IMG/VR virus record: IMGVR_UViG_3300046058_000006
Source of the DNA: an uncultured virus (IMG/VR IMGVR_UViG_3300046058_000006)
Lineage: Duplodnaviria > Heunggongvirae > Uroviricota > Caudoviricetes
DNA: 64,000 nucleotides
Reading direction: 5' to 3' (one strand)
The notes below the pieces were generated by a model, which saw only the letters and a program-made list of their open reading frames with translations, did not search any database and was not told the DNA's origin. Shown here piece after piece: positions 5,734 to 60,485 of the stretch (positions are counted from its first letter, which is position 1; each line of letters begins with the position of its first letter). The position numbers were made by a program, and so were the translations under genes.

Positions 5734-6192
5734 CTACTTCAAGCGCTTGCCCCTTGGCGGGATAAGCGCGTCAATGACTTCAGACTGAATCCGGTCGCCG
5801 TAATAGGACGTAATGAATCCTAATACAGTGCTGTAGATCAAAAATACCAGCGCGCCGACAGTGATCATGTAGATGGGTAGGCGTTCACCTGGCACATATT
5901 CAGCGCCGCCTACGAACAGCGTGCCTAAGCCGGTCGCCAGTAGGCCGATAATCGCTAAGAACCGTTCGACTTGTGCATCGGATCGCACTTCAGCGACCCA
6001 AAGGAAATATGCGACCCATGCGAAACAGTTTCCGCCGGTAGCTAAGTAGACTTCAGGGGCGTAGTAGCCGCGATTAACGACCGTGTAGACGGACAGCAGT
6101 ATCAGCCCCAAGCTGGATAGCGCCAAGACGTTTGTAACGCGCTTTCGCTTTTCCGGGTCGTTTTCGTGACTGTACGATATGAGTTTTTCCAT
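5734..6192 (-). CDS. Membrane protein (about 4 TM)
   Basis: Four hydrophobic segments; lies at the end of the tail module. Confidence 0.75.
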   Translation of the reverse strand: MEKLISYSHENDPEKRKRVTNVLALSSLGLILLSVYTVVNRGYYAPEVYLATGGNCFAWVAYFLWVAEVRSDAQVERFLAIIGLLATGLGTLFVGGAEYVPGERLPIYMITVGALVFLIYSTVLGFITSYYGDRIQSEVIDALIPPRGKRLK

Positions 6193-6226
6193 TATCGGCC
6201 TTGTGGTGTGTGATTATCGTACATTT

Positions 6227-6493
6227 TTAACGTTTTGCCTTTTCCTGCTGTCCGTCGTCCTGCTGTCCGCTGTTCCCGCCAGGGAATTGATCGCCGCTTC
6301 GGGTTGACTTCAGCGCCCGGCGCGCGGTTTCGGACGTTAGAAGCGTGCCGGCTAAGATCAAGAAGTCGCGCGCCAAAGATAAAAGCTGTGCGTCGAAGGT
6401 AATGAACCCAAAGAACCCAAGCCCGGCAAAGGCCAGCATAACAGCTATGATAATTTGGCCTATGTCCCTATTCGTTAGATCAAGCCGCGCCAT
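6227..6493 (-). CDS. Small 2-TM holin-like membrane protein
   Basis: Two hydrophobic helices and a charged C-terminal tail; position after tail-fibre genes. Confidence 0.55.
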   Translation of the reverse strand: MARLDLTNRDIGQIIIAVMLAFAGLGFFGFITFDAQLLSLARDFLILAGTLLTSETARRALKSTRSGDQFPGGNSGQQDDGQQEKAKR

Positions 6494-28897: not shown

Positions 28898-29565
28898 CTA
28901 ATTCTGCCGGCGAATCCCGTACCCAAGTTCGACAACCGCAAAGTAGTGCTGTGGGTCGGTAAGGTCCGGGTCGCGCTGTACGAACGGGAACGTCAGCGGT
29001 TCAAAGTCCATAGTCAGCGCTTCGTCCGGGTTATCCGGGTCGGGAACGCCGATCGAATTATCATGGGCGATTTCCCGAATGTGGGTTGCTATGGCTGAAG
29101 AAACCCTGCCGGCGTCGTAGTAGTCGCGTTCGGGCGTTCGGTCGCGCGTCGTATGCGCGCCGCCAAAGACCTGTGCATCCAGGCGATTCGTATAGTCGTA
29201 GACCAAGCCTTCAGGTCCAAGCCCGGAAGCGCCGCCGGCGCTTGAAGCGCCTGTAAGCGTGACAGTCGGGTAGTCACCGCCTTCTTCGCGCCCAAGGGTA
29301 ATCGATACGTCCGCTTGATCGCCCGCTTCTAAGCCTTCTACAGCGGCCGAATCCCACGAATTAATCAACAGCCGCCGNNNNNNNNNNNNNNNNNNNNNNN
29401 NNNNNNNNNNNNNNNNNNNNNNNNNNNNNNNNNNNNNNNNNNNNNNNNNNNNNNNNNNNNNNNNNNNNNNNNNNNNNCCGCTTCTAAGCCTTCTACAGCG
29501 GCCGAATCCCACGAATTAATCAACAGCCGCCGAATCGCCGATCTAATTTCGTAGTTCGTAGTCAT
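28898..29565 (-). CDS. Tail completion/terminator protein (split by assembly gap; about 170 aa)
   Basis: Removing the 100 N and one copy of a 55-bp duplication restores a 513-nt frame; synteny. Confidence 0.7.
29378..29477. other. Scaffold gap (100 N) with duplicated flanks
   Basis: 29323-29377 is identical to 29478-29532. Confidence 0.95.
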
Positions 29566-31745: not shown

Positions 31746-32078
31746 ATGGGCCTACAAGAACCCCATAGTTCGCGGGAAGTCGCGGAAGCAACAGACCGTG
31801 TGTTAGATAACGAAGAAGCGAACGAACAGGCGTCGATCGGCCAAGAAGCGGTCGCGGACGAACCGGACGAAACCGGCGGCTTCGGCGCGCGCTTTCCGAA
31901 GCTGAAGGCAGTCGGCCGCGTGCTGTTGGCCTGGATCACCGGATCGGTCTTGGTCGCGCTTGTGGTCTACTTGGCCGGCTTGTCCCTGGCCGCGTTCACA
32001 CCGCCGGCGCAAATTACCATGGTTATCATTAGCACGGTAATCATGTACTACGTCTTTCGGAACCGCACGCGCTTCTAA
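31746..32078 (+). CDS. Membrane protein (2 TM)
   Basis: Acidic N-terminus, two hydrophobic helices; TATA upstream of ATG 31746. Confidence 0.7.
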   Translation: MGLQEPHSSREVAEATDRVLDNEEANEQASIGQEAVADEPDETGGFGARFPKLKAVGRVLLAWITGSVLVALVVYLAGLSLAAFTPPAQITMVIISTVIMYYVFRNRTRF

Positions 32079-32083
32079 GGCCA

Positions 32084-32272
32084 GTGCAAAGACAGCATTT
32101 TTTCGACGTAATGTGGGTGATCGTAACCCTGAATATGGGGATTTTTGTAGTCGTGCCGGCGCTGATTCTAACCCCCATGCCCCTTACCCATCCGACGGTC
32201 ATGCTTCAGACGGGCTTGGTTTTAGCGACGGCTGTGTTCGTCGCGTTCGCGCTGAAAAGAAATGTGGTCTAA
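32084..32272 (+). CDS. Small membrane protein
   Basis: Two hydrophobic helices. Confidence 0.6.
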   Translation: MQRQHFFDVMWVIVTLNMGIFVVVPALILTPMPLTHPTVMLQTGLVLATAVFVAFALKRNVV

Positions 32273-34827: not shown

Positions 34828-35541
34828 TTAATTAACGACGATTCGGTTCGGGTCGGGCTGTTCTTCCAAGACGACGTTAATATCGCGGCCCATTTCATCG
34901 AACAGCGCGCCGGCCGCTTCCGCGAACGCTTCCGGGTCTATTTCGTATTCTTGACCAAGCGAAACCAGGGTTTCCCGGTCTATCGGCATTTCCCCGACTT
35001 CCAAGCTGATTTCCGCGTTCGCTTCGGCCAGCGCCGCCGAAAGCGCGGGGTTGTTTTCGACGCCGCCCGGCGCTGTATAATTCGCGTCGGAAGCGCCCGA
35101 AGCGTCGCCAGGTAGCGCGGAAATCCTGTCGTAGACGTAATCAGTCATAAACGGAACGCCGGTTTCCGTGTGTTCGATATGGTTTTCATCGGGAACAGAC
35201 GCTTCTAAGGACGTGTCTACGCCGCCGGTAGACAGCGCGGCGGCAATGGGTTTGCTTTCGACTTCAGCCGAATAGAACGTGCCTAAGCCGTCCTTGTAGC
35301 CGGCTTCGGTCACTTCCCCCACGTCGATTGCCTGGCCTTCGTGCATGACCGCAAAAGGTTTGCCGACAAGCGTATCTGCGGCCTTTTCCTGTTCTTCAGC
35401 CGGCCAGTGTTTCTTTCCGTGCTTCCCGGTCGTCGTTTCATCTTCCCCAAGGATAACCCCATGCACTTCATGGGGTTCGTCGTCGCCTTCGGCCAAGGTA
35501 GCGCGAAGGTCGTCCGTGACAAATTCGAAAGTTTCGGTCAT
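34828..35541 (-). CDS. Prohead maturation protease
   Basis: LVGKPFAVMH..VGEV..S motif; upstream of scaffold. Confidence 0.75.
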   Translation of the reverse strand: MTETFEFVTDDLRATLAEGDDEPHEVHGVILGEDETTTGKHGKKHWPAEEQEKAADTLVGKPFAVMHEGQAIDVGEVTEAGYKDGLGTFYSAEVESKPIAAALSTGGVDTSLEASVPDENHIEHTETGVPFMTDYVYDRISALPGDASGASDANYTAPGGVENNPALSAALAEANAEISLEVGEMPIDRETLVSLGQEYEIDPEAFAEAAGALFDEMGRDINVVLEEQPDPNRIVVN

Positions 35542-36334: not shown

Positions 36335-36811
36335 TCAGTTTTCCTTTTCTTCGTTCATGCCAGGCCACCCGTCAGCCTGGCGCTTCAGTTGACCTAAGTC
36401 GCGTTGCATATCGTCAGCTTCGTAGCCCGTCGCGGTGTTTTCAGGCGTTCCGTCGCCGTCTACGTCGATCGACATATGCTTGAAGCCGTTATACAGCGCG
36501 TCGTATTTGCCACCCTTGTATTTGCGAAGCGCGTTCGATACGATGTTATCCAGCAGGCCTACGATGGGTGTGTAGGCCGCTATCTGTGCGCCGTAACTGG
36601 CTTGTGACAGCGGTTCGCCGGCCAGCGCGTTCCCCAAGCCGATCACAACAGAAACGGCCAACAGCGACGCAAAACGCGGCACGTCGAACGGTTCGCCGGT
36701 TTGCCAGTAGTTGTTTGCGAAGCGCCAGGTTCCCCAAAACACAGCCGCCGCGATCGTTGTAAGAAAGGCATCCAGGCCAGTACCGTGTAGGCCCGACAAC
36801 AGTTCGTGCAT
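36335..36811 (-). CDS. Holin-like membrane protein
   Basis: Three hydrophobic/amphipathic helices around GEPFD..RF; charged C-terminus. Confidence 0.5.
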   Translation of the reverse strand: MHELLSGLHGTGLDAFLTTIAAAVFWGTWRFANNYWQTGEPFDVPRFASLLAVSVVIGLGNALAGEPLSQASYGAQIAAYTPIVGLLDNIVSNALRKYKGGKYDALYNGFKHMSIDVDGDGTPENTATGYEADDMQRDLGQLKRQADGWPGMNEEKEN

Positions 36812-36836
36812 AGGTTACTTGGGTCTACACAAGCGT

Positions 36837-37052
36837 TTAAACTTGTGCGTCCAAGTAGTCGAAAAGAAGCCAGGCGGTTGTCAGCGTTATGCCGATTGAC
36901 AGCGTAAACGCGACATTCTTTGACATACCGACGCCCATGATAGCGTTACCAAGCACGACGCCAAGCGCGCCAAATACGAACATAATAACGGCTACCAGGC
37001 CGCCGCCGATTACGTCTAAAATCCACGTATCGATCTTGTTTGGGTCTTGCAC
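36837..37052 (-). CDS. Small 2-TM membrane protein
   Basis: Hydrophobicity. Confidence 0.65.
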   Translation of the reverse strand: MQDPNKIDTWILDVIGGGLVAVIMFVFGALGVVLGNAIMGVGMSKNVAFTLSIGITLTTAWLLFDYLDAQV

Positions 37053-37091
37053 ATTTAGCGCGACGGCCAGGACAGTAAAAACACTTACGAA

Positions 37092-37307
37092 CTACAGCCG
37101 TGCGACGAACCGATGTATTTCTACCGCGAACCCTGTCAACGCCATTGCCGCAACGATCATTAACATTAGCGCGACAAGCGAAAAGCTGGTAAGAACCATG
37201 TAAACGCCGAACACAAACGCGCTTACCAGTGCGGCGGCTAACGACAGCAGAAACGCGAAAAAGAACAGTTGTTTGATCGTTCCCCAAACCGTGACTACCT
37301 GAAGCAT
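37092..37307 (-). CDS. Small 2-TM membrane protein
   Basis: Hydrophobicity. Confidence 0.65.
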   Translation of the reverse strand: MLQVVTVWGTIKQLFFFAFLLSLAAALVSAFVFGVYMVLTSFSLVALMLMIVAAMALTGFAVEIHRFVARL

Positions 37308-37347: not shown

Positions 37348-38223
37348 CTATCGATCGACTTCAAAGAAGCCGCCGCAGTCACACCATGCGATTTCAGTAT
37401 CGTCGTATTCACGCACGTCGTTAACGTCCGAACCGCAGTCGTCGCACATTAGGTTTTCAGCCGATCCAGTTGCGACGCTTGGGTTCGCTTCAAACATCGG
37501 GTCGTCCGCTATCTTGTCGCGGCTAACGATGCCAGGCGCGCCGCCTTTATCCGGCCCGTAACGGTATTCCGCGTCGCTGTTTGCATCCAGTTCCCTAACG
37601 AACAGGCGACCCGACCCGCAGGTATCACACGTCAGCTTGTCAGCGTTCGTTTGTAGAAACCGGATCGTTTTCGTCCGGTTCTTTTGCCAAGACCGACCGC
37701 CGCACGCATGACAGCCATACACAAACCGGAAGTCCCGGCCAGTATTGTACTTATCCAGGTTCGTGCAACCGTGTGCTTTGCCAAGCCACACGAAACGCGC
37801 CGTGTGACCCGCGATATGCCCGTGTAGGTACAGGTGTGCATGGATTAGCTCATGGCGCACGGTTTGGCAAACATCTTCCCACGTCTGTTGATAGTTCACA
37901 AGCTTCTTGCGAAGCAACCTGTGTTCCGTGATACCGACGCGGGCGACCCGGCGACCGTTTTCGATCTTGTACTTACAGACGCCCGCGCGTTTCGACGCGC
38001 GACTGTCCGAATAGAACCGAACGTCAGACCAAGGAACATCTAACAGTTCGGTTTCGGAAAGGAACCACTTGGCATAGCGTTCCGCCGCTTTCCGGGCGCG
38101 TTTCGCGTCAGCGTCAGCGGGCGGGCGCGTCGCGTCAACATGGGCTTCTTCCCAATTCTTCGCGTCAGCGTATTCTTCGGGGCGCGTTTCGCCTTCGGAC
38201 ACGGCCAGCACGGTTTCGGCCAT
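37348..38223 (-). CDS. SprT-like zinc metalloprotease with Zn ribbons
   Basis: RAGVC..TVRHELIH..GH..F followed by CxxC pairs; class promoter. Confidence 0.9.
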   Translation of the reverse strand: MAETVLAVSEGETRPEEYADAKNWEEAHVDATRPPADADAKRARKAAERYAKWFLSETELLDVPWSDVRFYSDSRASKRAGVCKYKIENGRRVARVGITEHRLLRKKLVNYQQTWEDVCQTVRHELIHAHLYLHGHIAGHTARFVWLGKAHGCTNLDKYNTGRDFRFVYGCHACGGRSWQKNRTKTIRFLQTNADKLTCDTCGSGRLFVRELDANSDAEYRYGPDKGGAPGIVSRDKIADDPMFEANPSVATGSAENLMCDDCGSDVNDVREYDDTEIAWCDCGGFFEVDR

Positions 38224-47882: not shown

Positions 47883-48329
47883 TTAGTGGTCGTTAGACAG
47901 CATTTCGGCCAAGCGGCGCGCTTCTTCTTTCTGTTCGGGGTGTAGGTCCGGGTTATCAGCCCATCGTTCTAAGACGCGCACAGCCGCGTCAATCGTTCCC
48001 TGGTTGTAGGGGTATTCCTGTTCCCAAACTTCCCCGAACTGCACACACAAGACTAACAGCGGCGTCAGATCGACGGACGCACTGAAGCGGTCGCCGATCA
48101 CAGGCAGGCGCGAAAGAACCGGGGCGCTTACCATTATTTCGACGGGTTCGCCTTCGTTAGCAATGTCAAAGTCGCCCGCTTCGATTTCTTCAGTGTGATC
48201 GTAGGCGTATTCACAAAACGCGCGGGCGATCGTAGCTTGATCGTCTACGTTCGGGTCGTTTTCGATTTCTTTCAGCCATTCGATGTACGCCTTCGCCGGT
48301 TTGTCCGCGTCGCGGTAGGTTTCGGTCAT
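47883..48329 (-). CDS. Hypothetical protein
   Basis: Acidic ORF. Confidence 0.7.
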   Translation of the reverse strand: MTETYRDADKPAKAYIEWLKEIENDPNVDDQATIARAFCEYAYDHTEEIEAGDFDIANEGEPVEIMVSAPVLSRLPVIGDRFSASVDLTPLLVLCVQFGEVWEQEYPYNQGTIDAAVRVLERWADNPDLHPEQKEEARRLAEMLSNDH

Positions 48330-48487
48330 ATGTAACCGCTTAGGGCTATGCTACCGAACAGGATAAAGATACCGACTATAAAGCGCCAGGGACAGCGCCG
48401 CAACAGACCTTCGGTGATCAACCACCCGCACAGGTAGCCGCCGACTATCGGAATAGCGAACGCCAGGGCCGTTTTGCCGGCTAACAT
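48326..48487 (-). CDS. 53-aa 2-TM membrane microprotein
   Basis: MLAGKTALAFAIPIVGGYLCGWLITEGLLRRCPWRFIVGIFILFGSIALSGYI; overlaps both neighbours; not in the ORF track. Confidence 0.6.
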   Translation of the reverse strand: MLAGKTALAFAIPIVGGYLCGWLITEGLLRRCPWRFIVGIFILFGSIALSGYI

Positions 48488-52189: not shown

Positions 52190-52846
52190 ATGGGACAGCT
52201 AACTGATAGCGCCCCTGAAGAACAGGCAAAGGTGTTCCTGTCCGCATGGCTACAGCGCGAAGGCGCGGCTGTGTTTTGGGAAGAAAACACCGAATGGCCG
52301 TTCCCGACCTTCAGCGTGTCCGGTACAGGCGGACGAAAACCCGACTTGGTTGCTTCGACGCAGGCCGGAAAAACAATCGCGTTAGAAGTGAAAAGCGGCT
52401 ACAATACAAGCGGGCCGATTACCGGGTTGATCCAGGCGTTCGGCTACTGGCGCGACTATTCGACCCGGAAAGCGAACTACAACCTGCCGAACCGCATGGG
52501 CGATAATCACAAGATCGACGTGTTCGCGGTAGCGACGCAGTACGCGAAACAAGGCGCGGCCTTTTGCCCGGATGGGAACCGCGATTCTATCCGCGACGAT
52601 TATGCGTCAGACGAAAGAACTTGGCGAAACACGCCGGATCAAGAGCACAACTGTAGCCTTGTGCTTCGCATGACAGCCGCGCGGCTTATCCGCGACCTAT
52701 ACGGCTACGAAAACCTGCCGGACGGCGCGCCAGGCTTCGGCCTGTTGCTGTCTGACGCCTTGGACGACCGAAGCGGCGATACAGTGCGCCCATGGGTATG
52801 CTACTACGACGAAAGCTTTGACAATTGGGAACCTGTGGTAGAATGA
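52190..52846 (+). CDS. PD-(D/E)xK restriction-endonuclease-like nuclease
   Basis: E....KPDLV..IALEVK...QAFGY. Confidence 0.75.
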   Translation: MGQLTDSAPEEQAKVFLSAWLQREGAAVFWEENTEWPFPTFSVSGTGGRKPDLVASTQAGKTIALEVKSGYNTSGPITGLIQAFGYWRDYSTRKANYNLPNRMGDNHKIDVFAVATQYAKQGAAFCPDGNRDSIRDDYASDERTWRNTPDQEHNCSLVLRMTAARLIRDLYGYENLPDGAPGFGLLLSDALDDRSGDTVRPWVCYYDESFDNWEPVVE

Positions 52847-54651: not shown

Positions 54652-55188
54652 CTACAGTTCCGAAAAGTCCGCGTCTATTACATCGTCGTCCGCGTCCCAA
54701 GTGTCGCTAACGCTTTGTCCCTGAAGCGCGTTCGCGGTCTTGGTTTGCGGGTCGTTCAACAGACCAAGCTTTTTCATGCGATTTATCACGCTTTCGTTTT
54801 GCGCGCGGACGGTTTCAAGAAGCACGTTCGGGATTTCTTCAATAAATAGTTCCCCTTCTTGTAGGTTTTCGCGTTCCTGCGTTATTCCTTCGCGCTTGAT
54901 GTACCGATAGGCGTTCGGGATTTGCTCTAAATCAATGGCGATAGCCCGCAAGACCTGTTTTGCGAACATATCCGGGTCGCGGCCATTGATCCGACGGTAG
55001 CGATCGGCCAGGTCCTTTTCCATCCGGTCGATAAAGTCCGTATCCGTCTTGGGAAAGTTGTGGTAGTAGTTTTCCCTGTCAGCGTATAGCCCGTGCTTGG
55101 TCGCGTTCTGGTTTCCGACCGGCGCGCCGCGTTTTTCGGCTTCAGCGCGGTCGCTGTTCGCTTCGTCTTTCGTTCGATCGTTTCCCAT
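54652..55188 (-). CDS. terS: Terminase small subunit
   Basis: GAPVGNQNATKHGLY motif; directly upstream of TerL. Confidence 0.85.
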   Translation of the reverse strand: MGNDRTKDEANSDRAEAEKRGAPVGNQNATKHGLYADRENYYHNFPKTDTDFIDRMEKDLADRYRRINGRDPDMFAKQVLRAIAIDLEQIPNAYRYIKREGITQERENLQEGELFIEEIPNVLLETVRAQNESVINRMKKLGLLNDPQTKTANALQGQSVSDTWDADDDVIDADFSEL

Positions 55189-55211: not shown

Positions 55212-56597
55212 CTAAAAGGCCGGGAAGTCACCGGGGAACGCGCGGAACGGAACCTGGCTTTGGGCGCGCAAGAATCCAAGTTCCGGCTGTGGTACATCCA
55301 GGCCTTCAGGGTAGACGACCATGCCGATAGCGTCTTGGGAATGACCCGCGTACAGCAGGGCTTGGCTAACGCTTTCGCGCAAGACGCTTTCGGCGTCGTC
55401 TTCAGCTTCGATCATTAACACGCCCAAGTTAGTGTCAACCACTACGTCCGGTTCGCGGCCGCTTTTCAACCGCGGTTCGATTAGCACCTTATCAGACCCG
55501 TACCGTTCTTCGAACGCGCGCGCGACCTGGTTAATCAGCGCGCGGTCGCTTGGCGGTCGCATATCGCCGGGGGCATCGTCGTCGCCTTCGCCGCCGTCGT
55601 CCGGTTCGTCGCCTTCAGGCGAATCGTCCGGCGATTCGCCAGGGTCGCCGGGTTCGTTTGGCATATCGCCGCGTTCGGGCGCGGCCAGCGCGGTCACACC
55701 TAACTGTTCTTCGATGTTTCCAAGCTTGTCAGCGATCGAAACGCGCTGTGAACCGCTGAAAACGTGTCCGATCAAACTTGGCCGGCCGCTGTCCGGGTTC
55801 GTAAGCAACGGCGCGCCACTATCGCCGCCTTTGCTTTGTGCGGTCGTTACAAGCACGTCACGGCGTCGGACGTTTTCGTGGGCGTCGCCATAGCTAACGT
55901 CAACAGTCGCGTTTGTCGCGGTCACACGCCCGTCTGTTAGGCCTGTAGTCCGTCCGGTCTTTTGCACGCTGTCGCCGCGCATGACCGACCCGCCAGCTTG
56001 CATCGGACCGACGCCGTGCGGCAGGTACGCCCTTTGGCTTCGGCGTTCGCTTTCGCTTACAGACCGTGCGGCCGCGTCAGCCGGCGATCCATCTTCCAAC
56101 AGCGAACCGCCCACGTATTCCCCCACAGTGCCGTCTGAATCACCGTCGATAGGCGACGGCTGTACGATCGGTTCGCCGACTTCAGCGTTTTCAGATCGCC
56201 CATAGACGTGCTGGTTAGACACACGTACCACCTGGCCGGCGTCAGCGTTCAAGCCGATTTCAGCGGCACTTGGGTCGGTTACACGCGCCATGAAGCCGGC
56301 AGTCGCCGCGCCGCCGCTGGCGTTCATTTCCGAAACGCCAGGTCGAACGGGCCGGTAGCGCCGTCGCGGGCTTTCAAGCCGGGCGCGCACGTCGTTGCCA
56401 AGCGCGCTAACGTCGTTGACTTCAACCACGTCGGTATCAGCGTCGATACGTTCGCGCGCCAGTTTGCCCGACTTGATTTCATCTTCAGGTAGCTTTTCTT
56501 CGACCAAGACCACTACCTGTTCATCTTCGGCGCTTACGCCGCGCACACCGTCGTCCGAAAGGATAAATTCGTAATTCCGCGTGCTTCCACAGGACAT
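55212..56597 (-). CDS. Nal1-like trypsin-fold serine protease fused to a restriction-endonuclease-like domain
   Basis: Triad SNQHV / ADAA / GGDSGA, KTGRTTGLT; Pro/Asp linker; C-terminal EP..SGREPDVV..IEAE..QALLY. Confidence 0.8.
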   Translation of the reverse strand: MSCGSTRNYEFILSDDGVRGVSAEDEQVVVLVEEKLPEDEIKSGKLARERIDADTDVVEVNDVSALGNDVRARLESPRRRYRPVRPGVSEMNASGGAATAGFMARVTDPSAAEIGLNADAGQVVRVSNQHVYGRSENAEVGEPIVQPSPIDGDSDGTVGEYVGGSLLEDGSPADAAARSVSESERRSQRAYLPHGVGPMQAGGSVMRGDSVQKTGRTTGLTDGRVTATNATVDVSYGDAHENVRRRDVLVTTAQSKGGDSGAPLLTNPDSGRPSLIGHVFSGSQRVSIADKLGNIEEQLGVTALAAPERGDMPNEPGDPGESPDDSPEGDEPDDGGEGDDDAPGDMRPPSDRALINQVARAFEERYGSDKVLIEPRLKSGREPDVVVDTNLGVLMIEAEDDAESVLRESVSQALLYAGHSQDAIGMVVYPEGLDVPQPELGFLRAQSQVPFRAFPGDFPAF

Positions 56598-56619
56598 ATA
56601 GTATATACGACGCCCGCTT

Positions 56620-57901
56620 CTATAAATTTAGGGCCAAAATCACTGTTGTAGAAATGAACAGCAGTAACAGGCCGCTGAAAAAGCCGGCCTTGAACCATTC
56701 GCGGCGATCCAGCGCGGTTAGTATCCATCGAACCAGTGTCGCGCTGTGAACCAGGATAACGACCATAAGAATGTATGCGGCGATTCGTATTCCCAAGTCG
56801 GTCATATCAGCCCTTCCGTCCGAAGCACTACCAGGATAACTTTACCGGATACATACGAAATTACAAGCGTAGCGCCGATAATCCCGATCCAGGTTTGCTG
56901 TTCGGGCGTCGTTCGTTTGATAGCTTCGGCTATGGCAACGACTAACAAAACTGTTCCTACCAGGAACGTAAAGCCGATCGCCAAAGCAACCAGTTCTGAA
57001 ATCATATGTTTACCCCACTGTCGCGTAGCAGGTGTAGCGTCGCTTTACCCATTACGAACACGAACAGGGTAGCTATGAAACCCGCCCATATACGCCAGGC
57101 TTGATCATGCGTCAGACTGTTTTCTAAGATTGTCGCTAACTGAATCAGCGGCACAAAAGACACAAAGAATAGCTGTAGCACGAACACGCCCATTAGAAGC
57201 GCGGCCAGTAGTTCGTTCATGTTGCACCTGCCGCTTGTAGTATCGTCGCGCCGGTCATGTAACAGATAACCAGCGCCAGGGTAAGGACAGTTCCCCAAAA
57301 CGCCTGTCTATCCGACGCCTTATCATTCAGGTAGCCAACTAACTTCATAAACCCGAAGCCAGCTACAATCAGCCCGAACCATACGACGAAACCAGCGCCT
57401 ATAGCCGCCGCGCCGAAGGCAAAGGCGTTCATGCGTTTTCAGTCACCCATGCGATAGCGTCAGCGCCTATCGACTGTGCCGACCACAGCAGTACCACGAA
57501 TACGATCAACCAAAAGAAATCTTCGCGGTGATCCGAAAACGTCTGACTGTGTTCATCCAGCAGGTCTACCAGTTCCGCTAACAGTAGCCCGCCCGCACAC
57601 ACTGCGGCCAGCACGCCGATGCCAGCGGCCAGGTTCAACAGGGTCGTTACCACGTCGATCATGGCAAAGCCCCCGAAGCGACCGCGTTAGCCAGTTCAAG
57701 CGTTAGCTGTCCCATGAACCAGGCACAAATCAGCCCGAACACAAGCACGCCGAACAGGACGGGATAATCCAGCAGGGTTCTGTATTTCATCGGAACGCGG
57801 CTTTCAGCCATGATCAACAGTTCGCCGCTAATCACACCCAAAGCGACGATTATACCTATGACCAAGACGCCCAAGACGACTGTTAGAAGCGCCTGGATCA
57901 T
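56620..57901 (-). CDS. Array of six small 2-TM membrane protein genes (57659-57901, 57429-57662, 57217-57432, 57002-57220, 56802-57005, 56620-56805)
   Basis: Each 61-80 aa with two hydrophobic helices; all chained by ATGA overlaps. Confidence 0.8.
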
Positions 57902-58272
57902 GCTAACACGTCTCCGGGCATCACCGGGTCGCTTTCATCGACTGTGCGGCCCTGTTCGGCGTCAAACATTACGTCGCCGTCTACAATCGCGCCGGGGCAA
58001 CGCACTGCGTCGAACGGGCCGGCGTTCGCGTATTCTTGAATCGCCGAATGAAGCGCGGTACAGGTGATATACACCCGCGCGCCCTTTTGTGTGACCGCCC
58101 TGGTATCGTCGGTCTGTTCGTCCGTCGGCGACAGGCAGAAAAACCCGGTCTGTGGGTCTTTCAGCAACAGTACGCGGTCGGGGAACGGAAAGGGCATTTC
58201 GTGCCAAGCGCGCACAACTGCCGGCGAAAGCGATACACTGCCTTTCGTATTTGTAGCCGTAACGTATGCCAT
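57898..58272 (-). CDS. Hypothetical protein
   Basis: Heads the membrane-gene operon; ATGA overlap. Confidence 0.7.
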   Translation of the reverse strand: MAYVTATNTKGSVSLSPAVVRAWHEMPFPFPDRVLLLKDPQTGFFCLSPTDEQTDDTRAVTQKGARVYITCTALHSAIQEYANAGPFDAVRCPGAIVDGDVMFDAEQGRTVDESDPVMPGDVLA

Positions 58273-60242: not shown

Positions 60243-60485
60243 TCAACCCCAATTCGATTCATTCAGCAAAAACACGAAATAGAAGAACTTACCGACCACA
60301 TACGGCAGGACGGCTATAACGATGGTAAGCGCCGCGCCAGCATGAATCGATACGTGAAACACGTTAGAAATTACCATGGATACGATACCGAAACAGGCCA
60401 ACAGGATAGCGCCGATAAACCAGCACACTACGCCGTCAACCTGTACGCTGTCATCATTCCAAATAAATTCATCTTCTTCGGTCAT
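60243..60485 (-). CDS. Small membrane protein
   Basis: Two hydrophobic helices; ATGA overlap. Confidence 0.65.
   Translation of the reverse strand: MTEEDEFIWNDDSVQVDGVVCWFIGAILLACFGIVSMVISNVFHVSIHAGAALTIVIAVLPYVVGKFFYFVFLLNESNWG

Follow-up and report, generated by a model that had tools for sequence, protein, structure and literature searches.

The DNA analysed here (the window) is a 64,000-nt stretch from an uncultured tailed virus, IMG/VR record IMGVR_UViG_3300046058_000006. The region of interest spans positions 55212 to 58272 and is listed below with its context gene and with two membrane genes encoded after the tail module.

58272 to 57898 (57898..58272), minus strand: soluble 124-aa gene heading an ATGA chain, no family match (Pfam/PHROG search, synteny)
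57659..57901, minus strand: two-TM gene 1, 80 aa (hydropathy)
57429..57662, minus strand: two-TM gene 2, 77 aa (hydropathy)
57217..57432, minus strand: two-TM gene 3, 71 aa (hydropathy)
57002..57220, minus strand: two-TM gene 4, 72 aa; 453 other bases stand here in a contig of run X5 (hydropathy, contig comparison)
56802..57005, minus strand: two-TM gene 5, 67 aa (hydropathy)
56620..56805, minus strand: two-TM gene 6, 61 aa (hydropathy)
56621..56626, minus strand: TATA-like TTTATA, -29 to -24 of the protease start (pattern scan)
55212..56597, minus strand: serine protease of NAL1-like type with a fused PD-(D/E)xK-fold domain (P0001), 461 aa (phrog_20754 protease, E 2.6e-26; structure models)
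56403..56597, minus strand: NAL1_N-like N-terminal alpha/beta domain, residues 1-65 (model alignment to NAL1; PF25608 on homologues)
55683..56360, minus strand: chymotrypsin-fold protease domain, residues 80-305, triad H130/D174/S260 (sequence, alignment, model)
55554..55676, minus strand: acidic, Pro/Gly-rich disordered linker, residues 308-348 (model confidence, composition)
55215..55550, minus strand: PD-(D/E)xK-fold domain, residues 350-461, with D351, D384, E397-x-E399, Q412 and Y416 (models, motif counts)
54652..55188, minus strand: terminase small subunit (TerS), context gene (phrog_9231, E 2e-21)
6227..6493, minus strand: 88-aa membrane protein encoded after the tail module, its C-terminal tail charged (inspection, tblastn, comparison)
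5734..6192, minus strand: 152-aa multi-TM protein (tblastn)

A sequence-only reading of this DNA had described six 61-80-aa two-TM genes chained by ATGA overlaps upstream of the protease, and this was borne out: hydropathy gave two hydrophobic segments in each of the six proteins, and all six junctions of the chain are ATGA overlaps. Two points were corrected. The right end, 57898-58272, is a soluble gene and not a membrane gene; both related viruses conserve this 124-aa gene, which follows their helicase gene. The protease gene is not part of the chain, being separated from the array by a 22-nt gap without an ATGA link, and TerS follows it 23 nt downstream, next to the protease as that reading had placed it. 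The TTTATA overlaps the stop of gene 6. Such a TATA-like pattern was found at 3% of background positions and at none of the six array genes, and it is possibly the protease gene's own promoter, judged from the sequence. A sigma-70 promoter scan, whose model is ill suited to archaea, returned nothing above chance.

None of the six array proteins was seen on inspection to carry a charged C-terminal tail, a highly charged hydrophilic tail being named as a holin feature in the part of PMC10791045 consulted. Small size with TM segments was found in six of six, and a charged tail or a stable linkage to a lytic enzyme in related viruses was not. Paralogy of the array genes is weakly suggested by their sequences: genes 3 and 5 gave a z of 5.6, and gene 5 gave 4.9 with the post-tail 88-aa protein, which is thought unrelated. 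A shared aromatic-x-x-G-x-x-x-L motif was chosen after the sequences had been viewed, and no DNA repeats marking the array as a recent duplication were found. The array also varies between strains, with a gene-sized replacement of one member in a sister strain (run X5 contig); array bins without coverage in runs X3 and X4 were left unused because no contig joins across them. In tblastn searches against the two related virus genomes, none of the six proteins had a match; both viruses carry a single two-TM gene at the array's position. Compared with superinfection-exclusion membrane proteins (T4 Imm-like), the array proteins gave no Pfam, PHROG or PADLOC match above noise (best Atlas value 0.81). 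For the array taken by itself, superinfection exclusion remains a reasonable conjecture.

The domain calls of the sequence-only reading for the neighbouring protein stood. H130, D174 and G258-D259-S260-G261 were invariant in all 42 halophile-type homologues, which supports the intact trypsin-fold triad read from the sequence. The AlphaFold model of the 461-aa protein reached a pLDDT of 88, with residues about 314-344 at low confidence. Its best Foldseek match was rice NAL1 (E 5.6e-14 over about 370 columns), followed by Streptomyces and alpha-lytic proteases (SGPB, TM-score (target) 0.83). Alignment of the whole-chain model to NAL1 likewise agreed with the Nal1-like N-terminal region that had been proposed. 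Pfam detected PF25608 on homologues P0012 and P0013, and on P0090 below the cut-off (E 2.4e-4); on P0001 itself the Pfam scores stayed under the cut-off. Three features of a NAL1-type chymotrypsin-fold protease are present: the two-barrel fold, a His-Asp-Ser triad with GDSG in the sequence, and a NAL1_N-like N-terminal domain. A PDB sequence search matched best to the alpha-lytic protease group (E 5e-5 to 2e-3). Proteases of this group are secreted, and some alpha-lytic-type enzymes are bacteriolytic. A trimer prediction for residues 1-308 gave a median of 0.37 against a mark of 0.42 and was counted for neither side. No signal peptide was visible by eye on the 461-aa protein, as had been noted before.

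The linker, described earlier as rich in Pro, Asp and Glu, contains 17 D/E and 8 P (plus 8 G) within 41 aa. It is the least conserved part of the protein; its length and sequence vary freely and no conserved site was seen. For the C-terminal domain, the 112-aa model (pLDDT 95.6) matched VC1899 (Z 10.7, rmsd 2.4, 107 aligned), XisH-like 2okf (Z 10.3), AF1548 (Z 10.2), NucS 2vld (Z 9.9, rmsd 3.1, 99 aligned) and the Can/Card nucleases (Z 8.7-9.9), and the predicted structure contains the alpha-beta-beta-beta-alpha-beta core of the PD-(D/E)xK superfamily. Structure models with fold comparison, the kind of check that had been suggested for both domains, returned a NAL1-like protease and a restriction-endonuclease fold, so a C-domain lacking that fold is not the case. 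Model matches and motifs also confirmed the remaining details, a fold of ~110 aa with Glu at the Lys position (IEAE) and QALLY.

The superfamily is defined, in the section of PMC3424549 consulted, by an Asp opening strand 2, a Glu on strand 3 and an acid on helix 1. Across 17 fused domains, the helix-1 acid was present in 15, D in 17, E in 17, the second E in 13, K in none, Q in 15 and Y in 14. The canonical Lys two residues past the Glu was found in 0/20 domains, with Glu at that site in 15/20. Active BamHI has E in place of K, according to the part of PMC4081073 seen; as Glu is therefore a known active variant, the absence of Lys means that only the canonical motif fails. Metagenomic homologues of the tail keep E/D-D-ExE-QxxxY. 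Weak A4 matches in Halobacteria belonged mostly to another 385-430-aa family with ExK (four loci read) and were left out of the domain counts. Salt adaptation was considered for the K to E exchange and dropped, because the 52190-52846 protein of the window and ERCC4 retain Lys. The C-domain had no useful match in Pfam, PDB sequences, NCBIfam or PADLOC and no fitting PHROG family, and an incomplete literature search of main texts found no paper on the protease-tail fusion.

Among the best 150 cluster representatives of the protease, the nuclease fold was the tail in 17. Other DNA-directed tails were an HVO_A0114 HTH (P0037, P0042), an SNase (P0052) and an endonuclease G (P0017), giving three nuclease folds in all fused to the NAL1-like family. 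In many homologues the tail is of a surface type (Ig-like or beta-rich, or an amphipathic helix), as labelled by eye with weak Pfam support. At least five tail-label changes were forced when counted on a quick tree of the protease. The nuclease domain also stands alone (117-135 aa) in 3 of 401 Halobacteria genomes, always in virus-like regions and in two of the three upstream of the same portal family as in the window. The window's portal itself reached just 20-23% against ChaoS9 and HGTV-1. Five host-chromosome fusions lack ExE, Q and Y and keep the fold, as would be expected if an active nuclease suits the virus but harms the host; this pattern rests on few placed loci, most P-numbered homologues being unplaced. 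Since these dead copies keep the fold, the tail may serve chiefly to bind rather than to cut.

The protease was found in all three viruses of the lineage, at two different positions. It is a core gene of the lineage and belongs to a wide family with exchangeable tails. At all four other haloarchaeal-type viral loci, and at 8 of the 17 viral loci overall, a terminase, portal or head gene is found no more than 5.5 kb from the protease homologue; in L004 the gene sits between the portal and a head-morphogenesis gene, and in L003 directly after the portal. Homologues in L007 and L010 are among replication genes, and that in L012 adjoins an endolysin. Natronorubrum/Natrarchaeobius carry family members as normal genes of the chromosome, unaccompanied by membrane arrays. 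Among cultured haloviruses of the phage collection, no relatives of the protease, the stand-alone nuclease, P0031 or the 152-aa membrane protein were found, the sole protease match being one uncultured phage record. Pattern scans of viral contigs with P0001, alignment A1 or TerL alone, and of genome contigs with alignment A1, found nothing.

At the loci compared, the array does not accompany the protease. None of the 17 distinct viral loci held two or more (>=2) small two-TM genes within 2 kb on the protease strand; 13 had none nearby and four had one. In L025, one of the two relatives, the protease lacks the nuclease tail and lies 7.4 kb from the two-TM gene. The synteny check thus went against the part of the sequence-only reading in which a holin array works with the protease.

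We tentatively favour, at somewhat less than an even chance, a cytoplasmic protease-nuclease of the late phase that acts when the virus turns from replication to packaging, beside an unlinked, variable membrane cassette. The two are neighbours in the variable region that precedes the terminase genes of this haloarchaeal siphovirus. The protease gene would be late and separately transcribed, encoding a cytoplasmic enzyme with two functions, and may have arisen when a viral protease gene fused with a small stand-alone nuclease gene of the same pre-terminase zone. Its tail would act as a metal-dependent DNase or nickase and at the same time keep the protease bound to DNA. The target of the protease would be a soluble protein of host or virus, probably one associated with DNA. 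As relatives drop or swap the tail, it is taken to be accessory. The array would be a separate, strain-variable accessory cassette and not the protease's lysis partner, probably expanded from the single two-TM gene kept by relatives and its proteins would interact with the host at the membrane, in entry exclusion or counter-defence, rather than act as holins; we hold this jointly with the protease role, at the same strength. Counted for the favoured reading were the core gene at two positions, the head/terminase neighbourhood, the own TATA, the exchangeable DNA-directed tails, the conserved tail site, the stand-alone viral copies, the dead host copies and the chromosomal family without arrays. 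For the cassette, the single copy in relatives, the X5 gene-sized replacement and the missing charged C-tails were counted. Counted against it were the surface-type tails of many homologues, for which a role at the envelope is a better fit than one on DNA, the L012 homologue beside an endolysin, the fold kept by the dead chromosomal copies, the small number of placed loci behind the contrast of viral and host copies, and the weak paralogy of the array.

The surface-type tails and the L012 homologue also support an unlikely alternative, the most probable of those considered, in which the protease is an egress enzyme that exits via the post-tail pair (5734-6493) rather than the array and cuts the S-layer, its tail serving as an anchor or breaking down the DNA that lysis sets free. 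In its favour, the protease is a core gene product without a visible signal peptide whose closest solved sequences are the secreted alpha-lytic-type proteases. The 88-aa and 152-aa genes are paired in all three viruses and, unlike the array proteins, have tblastn matches in both relatives; the 88-aa protein scored z 9.7 and 6.5 against the two relatives. By its sequence, the conserved 88-aa protein, with a charged tail and an architecture like HFTV1 gp33, appears the best holin candidate of the virus. Against this, the protease gene is distant from the pair and beside the terminase, chromosomal homologues exist without signal peptides or holins, cultured haloviruses in the collection lack a homologue, and the pair shows no sequence likeness to gp33/gp34. 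The best structural match, rice NAL1, is moreover an ATP-stabilised hexameric closed cage acting on a soluble substrate, in the part of PMC12012508 seen. How tailed haloviruses pass the protein S-layer is an open question in the consulted portions of PMC10791045 and bioRxiv 10.1101/2022.10.18.512658. The protease may, by itself, have a role at the S-layer. Improbable, in our view, is the wider proposal that the egress protease still missing for archaeal viruses is this NAL1-like family: late, signal-less, released by the post-tail pair, cutting the S-layer and using exchangeable tails (membrane helix, Ig-like domain, or an ExE nuclease clearing lysis-released DNA), with hosts having captured the fusion and disarmed its nuclease.

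A second virion-maturation protease for head or tail processing, whose tail would either be a passenger or tie it to DNA at the portal, would suit the packaging/head neighbourhood at 8/17 loci and the positions in L003 and L004. We give it little credence: a 237-aa gene without a named family match, conserved at 43% identity in both relatives, holds the prohead-protease position (34828-35541), and homologues also occur among replication genes and on host chromosomes.

A protease-activated nuclease is unlikely, and the full scheme, in which a trigger makes the protease cut the linker so that a toxic DNase is released to exclude superinfecting viruses or to shut off host DNA, is very unlikely. 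Protease-activated nucleases exist (bioRxiv 10.1101/2025.07.28.667249, seen in part), the linker is long and disordered, host copies appear catalytically dead by their site residues, and three nuclease folds are fused to this family. However, the systems described so far rely on a distinct gene for an MBL pro-nuclease together with a sensor, and both are absent from the viral locus: the two-TM and 124-aa ORFs upstream of the protease had no MBL match, and PADLOC gave no match in 12 proteins. The nuclease domain occurs alone and therefore needs no protease, the freely varying linker shows no conserved site, and in one relative the protease is tail-less. Least probable of all are six holin-like pores releasing the protease to cut the S-layer: adjacency and co-orientation, near-holin sizes, the one two-TM gene kept by both relatives and haloviral egress enzymes that are unknown in the consulted parts of PMC10791045 and bioRxiv 10.1101/2022.10.18.512658 are outweighed by the absent co-occurrence, the 7.4-kb separation in L025, the unmatched and swapped members, the missing charged tails and the better conserved post-tail pair.

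The lineage-core protease and the conserved membrane pair are now testable egress candidates, with the array dropped as a likely holin. Beyond egress, the analysis outlines relatives of the rice yield protease NAL1 in prokaryotes and viruses as a family whose tails are exchangeable, and also an unnamed, apparently ExE-type PD-(D/E)xK domain that occurs fused, alone and in putatively dead form.

Compared with known systems, the array resembles holin-endolysin cassettes and HFTV1 gp33-gp34 in having small two-TM proteins near a hydrolase, but its members lack charged tails and are not conserved. The architecture of the 88-aa protein is that of HFTV1 gp33, from a proposed lysis transcript, yet none of 17 membrane proteins tested, pair and array included, was similar to gp33/gp34 (best z 2.5). 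The Hachiman/AVAST/Lamassu/canu pairs also link a trypsin-like protease to a nuclease; as far as the part of Tuck et al. (2025) consulted describes them, their MBL pro-nuclease is encoded separately and belongs to host defence loci, whereas here a PD-(D/E)xK fold is fused in a viral late region. With the alpha-lytic group (Streptomyces SFase, SGPA/B; Lysobacter alpha-lytic, L1, L5) the viral protease shares the fold and the best PDB sequence matches, but not a visible signal peptide. Rice NAL1 (NAL1_N PF25608, Nal1_C PF25819; PHROG 20754) shares the N-terminal alpha/beta region and the chymotrypsin fold with its His-Asp-Ser triad, at about 15% identity to a viral protein that additionally carries a nuclease-fold tail. 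That tail resembles NucS/EndoMS, Can2/Card1, XisH and AF1548 in fold over the whole domain (Z 9-10.7) and in the helix-1 acid, PD, Ex(E) and QxxxY; it differs in lacking the Lys (0/20), a CARF domain and the N-terminal NucS domain, and its acidic ExE site is like that of BamHI.

The window reads as most of the genome of a haloarchaeal siphovirus and encodes PolB, an ERCC4 nuclease, a helicase, TerS, TerL, portal, a head-morphogenesis protein, major capsid protein and tape measure protein. No close cultured virus was found, the portal matching those of ChaoS9 and HGTV-1 at only 20–23%. The protease and a membrane-gene array are placed between helicase and TerS, all on the minus strand. The features discussed are:

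55212–56597 (−): P0001, NAL1-like protease of 461 aa with a nuclease-fold tail (residues 350–461)
56620–57901 (−): array of six two-TM genes
57898–58272 (−): gene for a soluble 124-aa protein
5734–6493 (−): post-tail pair, a membrane protein of 88 aa whose tail is charged (6227–6493) and a 152-aa multi-TM protein (5734–6192)
31746–32272 (+): two-TM genes of 110 aa and 53 aa, oppositely oriented, within the head module
36335–37307, 48326–48487, 60243–60485 (−): five more small membrane ORFs
52190–52846 (+): 218-aa ORF in reverse orientation between TerL and portal; carries QAFGY and a PD...ExK motif
704–1561 (−): TFB-like protein (label by eye), zinc ribbon, phrog_20431
29378–29477: 100-base N run breaking an ORF in the neck/tail-completion region
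37348–38223 (−): SprT-like metalloprotease (PF10263, E 2.3e-8), second accessory protease of the genome

From its motif, the 52190–52846 product is predicted to be a second, canonical PD-(D/E)xK-like nuclease; it gave no family match, and the inverted ORF at this place in the related virus L025 is another one, of 303 aa. The TFB-like gene is also near PolB in both related viruses (L001 and L025).

The trypsin-fold triad and Nal1-like N-terminal region proposed from sequence alone were borne out. P0001 matched phrog_20754 'protease' (E 2.6e-26), and Nal1_C and Trypsin_2 below cut-off only. H130, D174 and GDSG (S260) were invariant in 42/42 aligned halophile-type homologues, and the model (pLDDT 88) had rice NAL1 as best structural match, followed by alpha-lytic-type proteases. 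NAL1 is described as a cage protease of hexameric form whose N-domain binds ATP (PMC12012508). The family comprises 2939 cluster representatives (E≤0.001) and occurs in 41 of 401 Halobacteria genomes and at 17 distinct viral loci, L001 and L002 being treated as one virus. Six Natronorubrum/Natrarchaeobius loci lay in ordinary chromosomal context, without membrane arrays. A literature search of main texts, whose supplementary annotation tables could name the protease, found no paper on a protease-nuclease fusion or on viral NAL1 homologues; the cited literature includes 10.1101/2022.10.18.512658 and 10.1101/2025.07.28.667249, and neither 'protease' nor 'holin' occurs in the main text of PMC8651126.

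As a stand-alone model (pLDDT 95.6), the tail matched PD-(D/E)xK folds over the entire domain (VC1899, Z 10.7; XisH-like, Z 10.3; AF1548, Z 10.2; NucS and Can1, Z 9.9), in agreement with the Foldseek lists. Its profile was detected in 17 of the best 150 representatives and, counting near-copies, in 26 of 165 retrieved proteins. Among 17 aligned fused tails, the helix-1 acid was present in 15, and the strand-2 Asp and strand-3 Glu in all; the Lys site was Glu in 13 and Lys in none, upholding the earlier assignment, with Gln in 15 and Tyr in 14. The Gln/Tyr motif goes under the label 'QxxxY, NucS/RecB-like'. Conservation of the tail in close homologues (80–95%) is about that of the protease (90–96%), while the linker drifts (34–94%). 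PMC3424549 describes the canonical site; because BamHI has the same Lys-to-Glu replacement (PMC4081073), the acidic site may be active.

The domain also occurs as its own gene, both as P0166 (130 aa) and in 3 of 401 Halobacteria genomes; Atlas clusters of 119–127-aa proteins (0.90–0.91) are a further lead only. In provirus L102 it precedes TerS, TerL and portal by two genes, that TerS and portal being of the same PHROG families as the window's; in provirus L103 its surroundings are small membrane genes, with an HNH gene and portal downstream; in L104 it comes after a tail-fibre-like gene. By eye, a similar uncharacterised gene (155–169 aa) stands shortly upstream of the nuclease in both proviruses (L102:9183–9692, L103:7853–8320). 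Fused tails with a profile match (E 3e-10 to 8e-4; hhalign 94% for one) were found in 5 of 40 Halobacteria genomes examined for protease regions (G228, G197, G319, G152, G169; G165 left out), and ExE, Gln and Tyr were lost in all five. Where read, neighbours of such dead-tail fusions looked cellular, e.g., glycine-cleavage-like and sulfhydrylase-like genes (named by eye). G281 and G256 look by eye like further decayed copies, without a profile score. L088:8760–10001, L089, L090, L092 and L095 are chromosomal haloarchaeal NAL1-like proteases whose nuclease-fold tails are, by their site residues, catalytically dead. We infer that a working site would be kept by viruses and the fold alone by hosts. 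A widespread haloarchaeal family of 385–395 aa (L062:1360–2547, L064, L066), which combines a GxGQA motif with a PD-ExK domain at the N-terminus, is a distant relative of the tail.

Tails are exchanged among homologues, others carrying an HVO_A0114 HTH, SNase plus nuclease fold, endonuclease G, Ig-like or beta-rich domains or a short amphipathic helix (the last three labelled by eye), or no tail. A quick tree was built from 59 protease domains, leaving out six near-copies and P0042 and passing over P0032, P0050, P0063-range fragments and most of the distant hits; on it the nuclease-tail label needed 7 changes, 5 forced by well-supported branches. Some short helical tails (L055:1471–2703, P0065, P0025), sisters of nuclease-bearing proteases, resemble nuclease-domain helix 1 and may be truncation relics.

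The chain of six two-TM genes stood, with six ATGA overlaps after the 124-aa gene, but the protease lies outside it, behind a 22-nt gap. TTTATA stands at −29..−24 of its start, about the distance expected of a TATA element; the pattern also turns up at 3% of background positions and ahead of 0/6 array genes. Leaderless transcripts are the majority in haloarchaea (PMC4983044). Both related viruses keep the order helicase, 124-aa gene, a single two-TM gene, TerS; the fused protease comes two genes further on in L001, and in L025 7.4 kb on, with a helical tail, between portal and head-morphogenesis gene. By a simple hydropathy rule, small same-strand two-TM genes within 2 kb numbered none at 13 of the 17 viral protease loci, one at four and two at none. 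An aromatic-x-x-G-x-x-x-L motif, chosen after the fact, stands close to the C-terminus in 4/6 array proteins and both single-copy relatives, the match in gene 6 being likely chance; pairwise scores were not decisive. In run X5, from a study other than that of the likely source run, positions 57005 and 57238 are connected in one contig by 453 different bases in place of 232, a gene-sized swap at array gene 4; loose ends at 56639 and 56801 may point to a difference in gene 6 as well. Elsewhere, a homologue of the 110-aa two-TM gene is present in G004 (z 7.3), and L001 may have one too (z 3.8); small TM genes, array included, number ~15 in this genome vs ~9 in G002.

The neighbour scan covered 45 plus one more of 94 ORFs listed around viral protease loci. 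Terminase, portal or head genes lay within 5.5 kb of the protease at 8/17 loci (L001 counted), including all four haloarchaeal-type ones; it stands beside tail-sheath genes in L013 and among replication genes in L007 and L010. In two bacterial-type viruses (L012:7336–9387, L014:6999–8873) it comes after a two-TM phrog_1128 gene; that of L012 also precedes an endolysin (phrog_894).

The best fit, a tentative one, is that P0001 would be a late cytoplasmic protease that, with an accessory nuclease tail (probably active), works on DNA or on proteins bound to it ahead of packaging, beside an array that would be an unrelated, variable membrane cassette. This reading builds on the observed folds, motifs, distribution and unlinkage, and its activity, timing and substrates are predictions. 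A protease role in egress through the post-tail pair is possible, though unlikely; surface-type tails in many homologues and the L012 endolysin neighbour speak for it and against the best fit. Virion maturation by P0001, with its frequent head-gene neighbours, is less probable again, a separate conserved gene occupying the prohead-protease position (assigned by position only). A nuclease gated by the protease is doubtful. Least probable is the sequence-only reading of the array as holins releasing the protease onto the S-layer: despite the adjacency, array and protease do not co-occur in the relatives, and array genes gave 0/6 matches there at E≤0.05 (G004 ~81% complete), unlike the post-tail pair, kept together in all three viruses.

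The post-tail pair are better holin candidates than the array. A charged C-terminal tail is usual in holins (PMC10791045), and the proposed lysis transcript gp33-gp34 of HFTV1 (PMC12542753, citing personal communication) encodes a two-TM protein with such a tail, similar in build to the 88-aa protein but unlike the pair in sequence.
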